From a virus (taxonomy: Monodnaviria; Loebvirae; Hofneiviricota; Faserviricetes; Tubulavirales), in IMG/VR virus record IMGVR_UViG_2651869748_000001, positions 1-7,640 of that record: 7,640 bases of DNA. One strand, given 5' to 3'. Positions 1 to 7,640 of this stretch are shown one piece after another (position 1 is the first letter of the stretch; each line of letters opens with the position of its first letter). Below the pieces are notes generated by a model. The model saw nothing but the letters and a program-made list of their open reading frames with translations, had not been told where the DNA came from and ran no database searches. Position numbers and translations under genes: made by a program.

Positions 1-1254
<1,254 letters not shown>

Positions 1255-1334
1255 TCATGAAGACATTCCGCTTCCTCGTTTATTCGCTCACTACGTTCGG
1301 TCATAAACTTGCGGCGAGCGGTATCTCTTCTGTC

Positions 1335-2549
<1,215 letters not shown>

Positions 2550-2912
2550 TTAGCCTCCCGGTATTTTCCCTGATATAAACAAGCGAATATATCGATAAAT
2601 ACGTTCCTTTGAGTGAAAAAGAAAAGAAATAAAATCAGCGGCGATAATGAGATTTGCGCAAAATGTAAAGTTATGGGGTAAATAGCTGAACGCAATAATA
2701 AGGTACCTGTTCATAACAGCAGAAGAAGAAACAGTATCAATAACAGAGTTTGCTGCAAAAATAAAACTTACAGCAAGAGAAATCGACATAAAAAGATACG
2801 TTAATGTACCCGCATAAGAAAAAGCAGAAGGAAACTTATTTCTGAGGAAAGGCAGCAGCCTCCTGAAAATAATAAGCACAAAAGAATAAATGAAATTAAT
2901 AAAAACAACCAT
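2550..2912 (-). CDS. pVI-like minor coat protein (virion tip, hydrophobic)
   Basis: 120-aa very hydrophobic ORF, ATG at 2910-2912 with GAGG upstream. Starts 2 nt after the gIII-like stop and ends 3 nt before the pI start. Size, hydrophobicity and position match Ff gene VI; no sequence-level homology was checked. Confidence 0.6.
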   Translation of the reverse strand: MVVFINFIYSFVLIIFRRLLPFLRNKFPSAFSYAGTLTYLFMSISLAVSFIFAANSVIDTVSSSAVMNRYLIIAFSYLPHNFTFCANLIIAADFISFLFHSKERIYRYIRLFISGKIPGG

Positions 2913-2914
2913 AA

Positions 2915-4222
2915 CTAAACCTCAGCATGACGCATCAGGGCGCGACGATAAACAAAATAAAGACGAAAAACAGTAAGTGCATAAATAAAATATTCCAGAA
3001 CAGGCCTTAACAACAAATCATACGCTGATGAAAAATCGGATGTGTCAACTGTAAAATGTACAGTCCCAATCACCGGAAGATAAAATGAAAAATCAACCTC
3101 AAGTGGCTGAGCCCCATCAGAACGATGATTACCAGGAAAAAATAACTTGTCGAAATCAATAAATAACCACTCCTTAGGTAGCTTATCAATAAACTGAGAG
3201 ATTAAAGAATCATAATCATTTGATGAATCACCCGATTCATTTTTAACAATATCAGACAGCTGGTCATCAAAAGTATTCAGTGAATTATTTACATCAGCCT
3301 GAGAAAAAGAAAAGAAACTATTCAAATCATTCACTGAAACCCAAATACGCTGCAACCAGCCAAGAATATCACCAAGCCAGCCATCGCCGGAGGAACTGCC
3401 ACCGCCTGAGTTACCACCACCTGAGCTGCCGCCGCCTGAGTTACCACCACCTGAGCTGCCACCGCCTGAGTTACCACCACCGGAACTGCCACCACCTATG
3501 CCACCACCGCCAGAACTGCCACCGCCAGAACTGCCACCGCCAGAGCTGCCACCGCCAGAACTGCCGCCGCCTGAGTTACCACCACCGGAACTGCCACCAC
3601 CTGAGCTACCGCCATCCTCCTTATCATCGGAGAATGCAGGATCTACAGCAACTGGTTTCCAGTTGGCAGTACAAACCGTATCATCATCGGGATTACAAAT
3701 AAAAGGATTGCCGGTTGCCTCATAAATACACCCCTGCACATTAACATAACGGGTCCCGTCATCACCTTTATAAACACCAGGAAAAGTCATACCATCAAGA
3801 ACCGGACGAGAAAGACAAATCTCGTCAGTTGGCGGCTTATTATATTCAGGTGTCAAATCCCCCTCACCACCCTGAAAATCAAGAGTGCAGGTTTCCCACT
3901 CTCGCTTCTCTAAATCCCAGACTTTATATGCGGACCACCGGGCATGGACAAAAACCCCAACGGTGGAAGGCGCGCTAGACGAGTCTGATAGCTTACTACC
4001 GCAATAATGAATTATTCCGGAGCACGCGTCGTAACCACTGGAACCACAATAAATATGACCAGCTCCCCTGGCTAATTTAATCGATGCTCCCGCATCTGAA
4101 TAAGCTGTTCTGCAGTTGAAACGGCCAAAACACTGAACAAGCTTATCCGGATCTTCTTTCTCCTCAGCAAAAGAAAGCGAAGAAAAGAACAAAAACAGAA
4201 ACGGAAAAATAAGACGAATCAA
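2915..4222 (-). CDS. pIII-like adsorption / minor coat protein with Gly-Ser linker
   Basis: 435-aa ORF starting with TTG at 4220-4222, 7 nt downstream of AGGAG. Signal peptide (MIRLIFPFLFLFFSSLSFA|EE), Cys-rich N-terminal domain, 76-aa (GGGSS/GGGNS)n linker and hydrophobic C-terminal anchor. Position after the gVIII terminator matches Ff gene III. Confidence 0.8.
   Translation of the reverse strand: MIRLIFPFLFLFFSSLSFAEEKEDPDKLVQCFGRFNCRTAYSDAGASIKLARGAGHIYCGSSGYDACSGIIHYCGSKLSDSSSAPSTVGVFVHARWSAYKVWDLEKREWETCTLDFQGGEGDLTPEYNKPPTDEICLSRPVLDGMTFPGVYKGDDGTRYVNVQGCIYEATGNPFICNPDDDTVCTANWKPVAVDPAFSDDKEDGGSSGGGSSGGGNSGGGSSGGGSSGGGSSGGGSSGGGGIGGGSSGGGNSGGGSSGGGNSGGGSSGGGNSGGGSSSGDGWLGDILGWLQRIWVSVNDLNSFFSFSQADVNNSLNTFDDQLSDIVKNESGDSSNDYDSLISQFIDKLPKEWLFIDFDKLFFPGNHRSDGAQPLEVDFSFYLPVIGTVHFTVDTSDFSSAYDLLLRPVLEYFIYALTVFRLYFVYRRALMRHAEV
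3386..3613. repeat. Tandem 15/30-nt repeat encoding the (GGGSS/GGGNS)n linker of the pIII-like protein
   Basis: About 15 consecutive near-identical 15-nt units (plus strand ctgagttaccaccac / ctgagctgccaccgc and variants) between 3386 and 3613, translating on the minus strand to GGSSGGGSSGGGNSGGG... Confidence 0.9.
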
Positions 4223-4242
4223 GCAAAAACTCCTGAAATGAT

Positions 4243-4266
4243 TAAAAAAGCGCCCCGAAGGGCGCT
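4243..4266 (-). terminator. Rho-independent terminator downstream of the major coat protein gene
   Basis: Minus strand reads AGCGCCC-TTCG-GGGCGCT followed by TTTTTT: a perfect 7-bp GC-rich stem (4249-4255 pairing with 4260-4266), a UUCG tetraloop and a U-tract (4243-4248). It lies 16 nt after the gVIII-like stop and before the gIII-like RBS. Confidence 0.75.
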
Positions 4267-4281
4267 GTCGTTAAATAACTA

Positions 4282-4542
<261 letters not shown>

Positions 4543-4548
4543 TTAAAA

Positions 4549-4719
4549 TTAATTAACAGCATCGCTGAACATCCGGCAGACCAGAGTGAAAATAACACCA
4601 AGACCAAAGCCAAGAAGCCAGCAGACAATCCAGACATACAGAACGGCCCAGTAAAGCTCCCCGTCCTGTACGCCAGAATTCAGTGCGGATAAAACACCGC
4701 TGAAATCAAATTCAGTCAT
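4549..4719 (-). CDS. Small hydrophobic virion protein (gIX/gVII-like)
   Basis: 56 aa from ATG at 4717-4719 (MTEFDFSGVLSALNSGVQDGELYWAVLYVWIVCWLLGFGLGVIFTLVCRMFSDAVN) with one transmembrane-like helix. The ATG overlaps the upstream ORF stop (ATGACTGA), suggesting translational coupling. The ORF track's longer version would need a GTG start at 4750-4752 with no RBS. Confidence 0.45.
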   Translation of the reverse strand: MTEFDFSGVLSALNSGVQDGELYWAVLYVWIVCWLLGFGLGVIFTLVCRMFSDAVN

Positions 4720-4852
4720 AATAACGCTGAACAGTAATGCTTTGTGAGTCACAGGCGCGAATCAGTTTTATTCCGATGCCAAAACCTGAAGAAAATAAAA
4801 TCATTGCAGGCGCAGCAAATAAAACAAAGTTCAGAAAATCAGCGTCAGACAT
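4712..4852 (-). CDS. Small hydrophobic virion protein (gVII/gIX-like)
   Basis: 46 aa from ATG at 4850-4852 (MSDADFLNFVLFAAPAMILFSSGFGIGIKLIRACDSQSITVQRYYD), with AAGG about 8 nt upstream. Begins 5 nt after the stop of the 141-aa ORF. The alternative ATG at 4904-4906 lacks an RBS and would overlap the upstream gene by 50 nt. Confidence 0.45.
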   Translation of the reverse strand: MSDADFLNFVLFAAPAMILFSSGFGIGIKLIRACDSQSITVQRYYD

Positions 4853-4856
4853 ATCA

Positions 4857-5282
4857 TCAGCCTTTTTCTTTACCTGCGGGCAGCGCACCCAGCGGCTGAC
4901 CGTCAAAACGTTTCATGGAGCCGGAAATAAAACGATACCAGACACCATGACGTTCAGAGCCTGTCGACCATGAGTTAACATCCACCGTGAGATAAACAGG
5001 TTTGCCCTGCAAATCAGGACATGAATTAAAAAATTTAAAATCCTCCTCAGTACAGGAAAATCGCTCATGCTCCTCACGGCGGACTTTTAATTTTCGGTCC
5101 TCATACGGATAGGCAATAACAATGGCATATTTGGGTTTAGCCTCAGGGTTATAATGAGAACCCGTGGGCTTTAACTCCTCATCATTTATGACAGTGGCGT
5201 GAATAAAAAATCCCGCCATTGTCATACCTGCAGTAAAACCCTCAGGGGAAGGAAACGGAAAACTGTCATAAATTTGATTCAT
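4857..5282 (-). CDS. Hypothetical protein in the gV position (possible ssDNA-binding protein)
   Basis: 141-aa ORF, ATG at 5280-5282 with GAGGAG 8 nt upstream, starting 30 nt after the rep stop. The CDS call is solid; the function is inferred from position only (between rep and the small coat genes) and I recognise no motif. Confidence 0.6.
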   Translation of the reverse strand: MNQIYDSFPFPSPEGFTAGMTMAGFFIHATVINDEELKPTGSHYNPEAKPKYAIVIAYPYEDRKLKVRREEHERFSCTEEDFKFFNSCPDLQGKPVYLTVDVNSWSTGSERHGVWYRFISGSMKRFDGQPLGALPAGKEKG

Positions 5283-5312
5283 AAATCAGACTCCTCAATG
5301 TTAAAAATTCAG

Positions 5313-7407
<2,095 letters not shown>

Positions 7408-7451
7408 TTTTGAGATGTATGATGAGGTATGAAAAAACAGAGGGGATATAT

Positions 7452-7640
7452 ATGCCAACAAAGCACATAAACGATGTTTTATGGAGAAAGGTAGAGAAAG
7501 AAACTGTAAAAGTGGTAACAACACTGGCAATACCAGTAAAAGATACCAAAGTTTTAGAATGGATAATCGCAAAAGGACTGGAGTCTATAACAGAAGATGA
7601 CTACAGGAAATTTGCAAAGACGGATGCAACAAAAAAATAA
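7452..7640 (+). CDS. Small hypothetical protein, candidate transcriptional regulator of the phage switch
   Basis: 62 aa from ATG at 7452-7454, with GAGGGG 6 nt upstream, ending at TAA 7638-7640 (the ORF track starts earlier at 7410 with a weaker RBS). Divergent from rep, immediately downstream of the operator-like palindromes. AT-rich, lysine/glutamate-rich, and I recognise no family; the regulator role is inferred from context. Confidence 0.5.
   Translation: MPTKHINDVLWRKVEKETVKVVTTLAIPVKDTKVLEWIIAKGLESITEDDYRKFAKTDATKK

Follow-up and report, generated by a model that had tools for sequence, protein, structure and literature searches.

A small gene divergent from rep in an inovirus prophage may encode a repressor that reads phased TCTWAGA repeats

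It is quite probable that the 62-codon ORF at the end of the 7,640-nt stretch of DNA analysed here (the window) encodes a small, probably dimeric, sequence-specific DNA-binding phage repressor, which would act on TCTWAGA arrays at the predicted rep promoter (P_rep) and give immunity. The first-pass annotation had proposed a repressor or immunity determinant in an exchangeable module. Two lines of sequence comparison, independent of each other, support this reading: operator-like repeats always occur with the protein family and in the window overlap the rep core promoter, and near-identical Escherichia coli phages have unrelated small proteins with other repeats, or an IS110 transposase, in this slot. 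The pair of putative regulator and predicted operator is unusually conserved across distant phages and is not hypervariable, as the word "immunity" might imply.

The small gene, its prophage, and its protein family

An inovirus prophage occupies the whole window (1-7640), and all of its large ORFs lie on the minus strand (Table 1). The window also has several small ORFs and an ORF for a 141-aa protein (PHROG 30648). A megablast search of a phage collection with the whole window gave no match. Relatives were found in 42 of the 5,426 complete E. coli genomes, where they usually adjoin hipA, the site of the chromosomal dif, and are commonly arranged in tandem with two or three copies. The window closes with the stop codon of the small ORF and is short of the final ~300 bp of phage DNA, on the attP side; two loci with the same arrangement (L007 and L010) have ~300 bp of extra phage DNA past the small ORF. 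In L007 (10190-10500), the order is an unannotated 51-aa hydrophobic ORF (MQTTSDLILDLLIKHFVVGSITGMTIFSLITLVLPLVMTIHNKLSKDTEIL), a dif-like site (AGTGCGCACAATGACGTTATGTATAAA), a terminator-like hairpin rich in GC, and then the XerC arm of the host dif (ACATTATGCGCACC). The segment with the 51-aa ORF and the dif-like site is common to all dif-type variants, whatever their regulator type.

In the regions 2400-3300 and 3300-3750 of the window, the composition is a mosaic: GC is at ~34-37% in the pVI-like gene and towards the 3′ end of the pIII gene, but at ~56-59%, with a strong negative GC skew, in the Gly/Ser-repeat linker of pIII (GGGSS-type repeats). In a metagenome-assembled E. coli contig (L003 11465-20107), a window-type prophage is immediately followed by a second, unrelated inovirus, which is Ff-like, has a G2P_X_C rep and Phage_DNA_bind, and contains an interrupting IS21-type element. 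This arrangement suggests that different filamentous phages are stacked at one site.

Table 1. Features of the window. Fractions give matches to TCTWAGA.
Feature	Position	Strand	Remarks
Secretin	1-1224	minus	
Zot/pI-like protein	1335-2546	minus	
pVI-like protein	2550-2912	minus	
Gly-rich pIII-like protein	2915-4222	minus	
86-aa major-coat-like protein	4282-4542	minus	
rep	5313-7313	minus	666 aa; Phage_GPA-type replication endonuclease; Pfam PF05840, E=5.9e-49; PHROG 91
Weak heptad	7323-7329		TCCAAGA (6/7); overlaps rep Shine-Dalgarno (GGAGG, minus strand)
Distal operator (predicted)	7337-7351		TCTTAGA (7/7) and TCTAAAT (5/7), 8 bp apart; in predicted rep 5′ leader
P_rep (predicted)	7369-7397	minus	-35 TTGACA (7397-7392); 17-nt spacer CTTAGAAACTAAGAAAT; -10 TATAAA (7374-7369)
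Proximal operator (predicted)	7378-7392		TCTTAGT and TCTAAGT (each 6/7), 8 bp apart
Candidate small-ORF promoter (weak, inferred)	7394-7423	plus	-35 TCAAGA (7394-7399); 18 nt; -10 TATGAT (7418-7423)
Third operator (predicted)	7402-7415		TCTAAGT (6/7), then TTTGAGA (5/7); on the ORF side of the P_rep -35; repeat family D1
Shine-Dalgarno	7440-7445	plus	GAGGGG; 6 nt upstream of ATG 7452; read from sequence
62-aa ORF	7452-7640	plus	MPTKHI(D/N) family, PHROG 5219; putative small DNA-binding regulator

The 62-codon ORF is a genuine gene. Its TAA stop codon (7638-7640) ends on the last base of the window, and its translation is identical to the 62-aa sequence given in the first-pass annotation. A TTG at 7410 is mechanically possible as an alternative start and would give a protein of 76 aa. 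Since every homologue begins with MPTKHI and a GAGGGG sequence lies at a proper place upstream (Table 1), the ATG at 7452 is taken as the true start. A word-indexed search gave 89 homologues, and an exhaustive search gave 141 representative clusters at 50% identity. The dN/dS values among the homologues are 0.07-0.16, indicating purifying selection, with third-position identity down to 0.32 and with synonymous sites close to saturation in the distant comparisons. The small ORF and rep are divergent, with 138 bp in between. The ORF, at a GC content of 0.349, and the intergenic region, at 0.312, are poorer in GC than rep (0.546) and the window as a whole (0.479). Thus, the low GC content that had been taken as a sign of an exchangeable module is real, but it is a weak argument for one. 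Since the pVI-like gene (0.336) is as AT-rich as the small ORF and the Pseudomonas homologues are GC-rich, the homologues tracking the GC content of their hosts, GC alone tells little.

The protein had been described as having no recognisable family. This holds for Pfam and NCBIfam: searches of these databases and of PDB sequences with the single protein, with 61 members, and with a 63-sequence profile gave no meaningful match. The ankyrin and LYR matches of the family were rejected as spurious helix motifs. On the other hand, the protein matches the PHROG 5219 profile end to end (residues 1-61 against positions 2-62 of 63, E=1.7e-22); this PHROG has no assigned function, and the membership names the family of the ORF and not an activity. 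A tblastn search with the 62-aa protein gave only two inovirus records, both uncharacterised. Two family clusters are labelled "Repressor" in UniRef, which is an automatic name and not evidence. No experimental work or published function was found for the family in the literature; the UPphi paper mentions that enterobacterial inoviruses have reverse-oriented, uncharacterised ORFs close to dif (PMC7307601), and the phiAFP1 paper leaves small ORFs unassigned (PMC9769780). The family is nevertheless widespread, from gut Enterobacterales to Pseudomonas, Haemophilus, and marine bacteria, and has no Pfam model; its hosts include Pasteurellaceae, Aeromonas, Methylobacter, marine Alteromonadales, and a Saprospiraceae MAG. 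It is probably an uncharacterised DNA-binding family.

The remark that no helix-turn-helix (HTH) is obvious was borne out, as no HTH family of Pfam or NCBIfam matched the query or the 61 members. A ribbon-helix-helix (RHH) type or a novel DNA binder had been suggested instead, with profile searches and structure prediction as a check. Pfam gave no RHH match for the query or any of the 61 members at E<=10, and no RHH chain was found in the PDB profile searches with the family. The AlphaFold (AF2) monomer model (pLDDT 89.6) has an extended arm (residues 1-7) and three helices (residues 8-25, 31-45, and 48-61). The N-terminal arm is conserved in the family; its MPTKHI sequence has one hydrophobic position, and no strand is predicted there in the monomer model. 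The third helix is acidic (ITEDDY) and poorly conserved. The best structural matches of the model are weak and below significance, and several RHH domains are among them, some of which belong to small RHH-type antitoxins.

Predicted promoters and the TCTWAGA repeats

The exact word TTCTAAG occurs three times in the window, always within 7338-7407, while 0.69 copies are expected for the entire window. P_rep, which is close to the consensus, is the sole TTGACA-17-TATAAA match in the window (0.01 expected). From its spacer sequence, the stretch between TTGACA and TATAAA is therefore made of the two heptads TCTTAGT and TCTAAGT, which form the palindrome CTTAG-TTT-CTAAG; the block is conserved in the family consensus. 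The distal operator is equivalent to the TTTCTAAGAAATTAGA site of other family members. The third operator falls in the spacer of the candidate small-ORF promoter, which was not detected by a consensus promoter scanner and whose TATGAT is also found in Citrobacter/Enterobacter-type loci (L018-L021). The weak heptad at 7323-7329 could add translational or roadblock control, or be a coincidence.

Is this arrangement common to the family? The upstream regions of members from all hosts examined share the same short words. TTCTAAG was found on either strand in 70 of the 72 unique 220-nt upstream regions, versus 4% of background segments from the same loci. The half-site TCTAA/TTAGA occurs 4.05 times per 180 nt, versus 0.69 in shuffles, and three of its arrangements are preferred: TCTAA-N4-TTAGA was counted 40 times, TTAGA-N1-TCTAA 25 times, and direct repeats with an 8-bp step 38 times, where less than 0.1 is expected for each. 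It was revealed that all of these reduce to one 7-bp palindrome, TCTWAGA, perfect copies of which number 1.64 per region versus 0.04 in shuffles. Neighbouring heptads with at least six of seven matches are spaced by 8 bp in 48 cases (0.3 expected). When 65 upstream regions were anchored on the adjacent GTCAA, the rep strand had TTGACA in 54 of them and TTGACT in 10 more, and the consensus after the -35 has a conserved TTAG-TTCT-AG block within the spacer and then a TAAnnT-type -10. The repeats are thus co-conserved with the ORF protein and are its putative operators. A reverse scan of viral contigs with the 15-mer TTCTAAGAAATTAGA was uninformative: 116 of the 120 matches were isolated, AT-rich, chance occurrences, and heptads were clustered only at the other four, which adjoin a family member.

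The exhaustive search also gave about 25 longer proteins (170-320 aa) whose first ~55 residues are the MPTKHID module. Several of them have a Walker A motif (GK(T/S)xSGKS(T/N)) and weak, sub-threshold matches to P-loop NTPases. Their hosts include Mixta, Salmonella diarizonae, Xenorhabdus, Serratia, and Pantoea; the S. diarizonae fusion gene lies among conjugation genes (TraX, TrbL/VirB6, SLT, and resolvase), and no such fusion was found in viral contigs. TCTAA-N4-TTAGA palindromes are present just 5′ of the start codons of the fusion genes themselves, and the N-terminal module thus keeps its half-site also when it is not in an inovirus. This pairing is the strongest indirect argument that the module may read that sequence. 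It is possible, though less likely than not, that MPTKHI proteins represent a DNA-binding domain not classified before and not a cryptic RHH or HTH, in which the invariant arm and the three-helix body would read 7-bp TCTWAGA palindromes in 8-bp phase. The module would then form a portable, near-universal repressor-operator cassette, shared by inoviruses of many bacterial orders whose replication modules are unrelated, and on conjugative elements it would have come to serve P-loop NTPase fusions as their DNA-targeting head. If so, one prophage could cross-silence very different incoming filamentous phages, which is conceivable because the protein and the operator are so conserved.

From the sequence comparisons I infer DNA binding, the direction of regulation, a dimeric or RHH-like fold, and immunity, and the following mechanism may be proposed. 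The ORF protein would recognise the TCTWAGA palindrome (half-sites TCTAA and TTAGA) in 8-bp phased arrays in the 138-bp region between the ORF and rep, where two heptads occupy the P_rep spacer, two are located in the rep leader, and a further one or two are found across the -35, in the likely ORF promoter. Cooperative filling of these sites would keep RNA polymerase off P_rep, so that rep would be shut down together with the structural and assembly genes that run in the same direction, and the small gene would probably be autoregulated as well. In a lysogen, the repressor would silence incoming phages with the same operators, which would give immunity.

Replacement of the regulatory module

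The small gene is divergent from a Phage_GPA rep in E. coli, from a G2P_X_C rep in tandem prophages of Pseudomonas aeruginosa, and from a Rep_trans rep in marine 6.3-kb genomes. Thus, the position is conserved but the neighbouring replication module is not, and the TCTWAGA operator accompanies the ORF family beside any of the three unrelated Rep families. The DNA on the 3′ side of the small gene is in every case largely non-coding and contains dif-like sequences.

In most of the E. coli relatives, the similarity to the window stops at the start codon of rep, and the slot beyond it is filled in at least four ways. The window type, with TCTWAGA operators and the 62-aa ORF, is present as a full module in one of the 5,426 complete E. 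coli genomes (CP159170, 100% identity), and the ORF alone is present in four more. The 700481 type, with an unrelated 62-aa ORF and TGCACAAnTGTGCA-like repeats, was found in seven of these genomes. In strain 700481 (L248 9664-9998), the backbone is 99.1% identical to the window, whereas the ORF in the slot (MSRKSIGISNERYL.../MSRKSIGISNERYLRIERAAVDITAKTGKVTKWSEIVNYLIDEYL...) gives no BLASTP alignment to the window ORF, and the repeats upstream of it are of the TGCACAA type. The GTTAACA type, found in eight genomes, has GTTAACA palindromes and a 60-aa ORF (MKRKAIAITESTYL...). In the AST205 type, which is a GTTAACA type, the 60-aa ORF precedes a 70-aa ORF and then a window-type 62-aa ORF; Pfam gave no match for the 60-aa and 70-aa ORFs. 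The IS110 type, seen in many of the E. coli relatives, has no divergent ORF and lies at non-dif loci; only 2 nt separate rep from an IS110-family transposase gene that lies upstream of it in the same orientation (L002 12334-13299; L250 9920-10885). Copies of this type were found at yoaB/yoaA and ybiB/hcxB, where they adjoin a DUF2726 gene, and the integration and regulation modules appear to have been exchanged together. Strains E100341 and E300010 each have one IS110-type copy and one AST205-type copy.

In the GTTAACA module (L001 12404-13229; L249 10100-10395), the 60-aa ORF is unannotated and RHH-looking, and appears to be frameshifted in L249. A direct repeat of ~45 nt, CAT(A/C)(G/A)TAGTTACCTATCGATACGAAGATT(C/G)CTA(A)GAAGCAATAT, is found after the 60-aa ORF and again after the 62-aa ORF (L001 12701-12750 and 13230-13275) and looks like the right-hand recombination boundary of a swappable module.

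The AST205-type prophages (L001 5001-13620) encode a protein identical to that of the window ORF, yet TTCTAAG is absent throughout, which leaves the regulator without an operator in cis in these prophages. The ORF may be either a leftover of a recent recombination or a gene acting only in trans on other phages. The TTCTAAG motif is lost where the regulatory region is replaced. The divergent gene and its own putative repeats are replaced as a unit on a constant backbone, which resembles heteroimmune module swapping as known for the rstR/ig-2 alleles of CTXphi.

Alternative roles and known systems

Other roles of the protein and of the repeats have to be considered. The same repeats may be bound mainly for a purpose other than repression, the protein serving instead to activate or switch its own transcript, or to act in replication or copy-number control through iteron-like repeats close to the origin. 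Phased short repeats are indeed also typical of iterons and centromere-like sites, and other mobile elements have fusions of the N-terminal module with P-loop NTPase-like regions. However, I consider such a role distinctly unlikely, as the repeats are placed within the spacer of the core promoter and in the rep leader, the classic position for repression. The cassette goes with three unrelated Rep families, which makes a part in a Rep-specific origin improbable, and a hairpin origin is unlikely because the intergenic ssDNA has no significant structure (z=-0.44); the origin reading of the intergenic region was rejected. That the repeats are bound by a host factor or otherwise used, with the small protein having a role unrelated to DNA, would agree with the lack of a match to any known DNA-binding profile. 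It is nevertheless very improbable, since the motif tracks the protein from Enterobacterales to the Saprospiraceae MAG, is also present upstream of the fusion proteins in non-phage contexts, and is gone together with the original regulatory region where this has been replaced.

The location of the gene between rep and the dif-like attachment region, the occurrence of family members in dif-integrating phages, and the absence of the gene from the IS110-type variants, which are integrated elsewhere, would suit an accessory factor for integration or excision, that is, a recombination directionality factor or an Xer helper working with the adjacent dif-like attP. The TCTWAGA heptads, though, are all at the rep promoter and none is near the dif-like sites, and other dif-integrating variants of the same phage are devoid of the protein and have an unrelated small ORF in its place, which makes this role highly unlikely. 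Finally, the protein might be the antitoxin of a small toxin-antitoxin pair, whose partner could be the 51-aa hydrophobic ORF past the window: this ORF comes next in E. coli, and the weak fold matches include small RHH-type antitoxins. Such a pair is hardly credible, because no downstream gene is conserved across the E. coli, Pseudomonas, and marine loci, and the reading was rejected for the lack of a conserved partner. The 51-aa ORF also follows unrelated alternative regulators in other E. coli variants, so it is part of the backbone and does not belong to this gene.

The preferred reading thus remains a repressor acting on TCTWAGA arrays at P_rep. The family now has a precise operator prediction. 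If confirmed, it would help to predict which inovirus prophages form an immunity group and which are cross-immune, also for prophages in tandem at dif in clinical E. coli, and might define a new DNA-binding domain family.

The regulation of lysogeny and chronic production of filamentous phages is understood in few models (CTXphi, SW1, and Pf4), all of which have HTH repressors. In the Vibrio phage CTXphi, the regulator-operator alleles of rstR/ig-2 are exchanged between otherwise similar phages, giving heteroimmune types, and RstR is an HTH protein of ~110 aa. The present locus resembles RstR/ig-2 in that a small gene is divergent from the replication gene (rstA in CTXphi) of a dif-integrating filamentous phage, with multiple predicted operators in a compact intergenic region. 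The region between the ORF and rep is also similar in size to ig-2, which is quoted as 138 bp (PMC4762005). In contrast to RstR, the ORF protein has no HTH and no sequence similarity, and the Foldseek comparison with RstR gave only E=0.84. The predicted operators also differ from those of CTXphi in being 7-bp palindromes in 8-bp phase, and the pair is conserved across very distant phages.

Binding to short phased repeats is known for RHH repressors such as MetJ (metboxes), CopG, omega of pSM19035, and Arc/Mnt, and for the N-domain of TraM. Short symmetric heptads in close tandem phase, an operator trait expected of RHH families, are found here as TCTWAGA, but the ORF protein differs from these repressors by its extra acidic third helix and the lack of a predicted N-terminal strand. 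FpsR of the Shewanella filamentous phage SW1, an HTH protein of the Cro/CI type, is a divergent repressor with four operators, one of which lies between the -35 and the -10 of the promoter of the replication gene, and the SW1 intergenic region is 621 bp with long overlapping leaders (PMC8569181, PMC4762005). FpsR was rejected as a homologue, being a 13-kDa HTH protein. Nevertheless, the small ORF shares the genomic position of FpsR and, like it, has a predicted operator inside the promoter of the replication gene.
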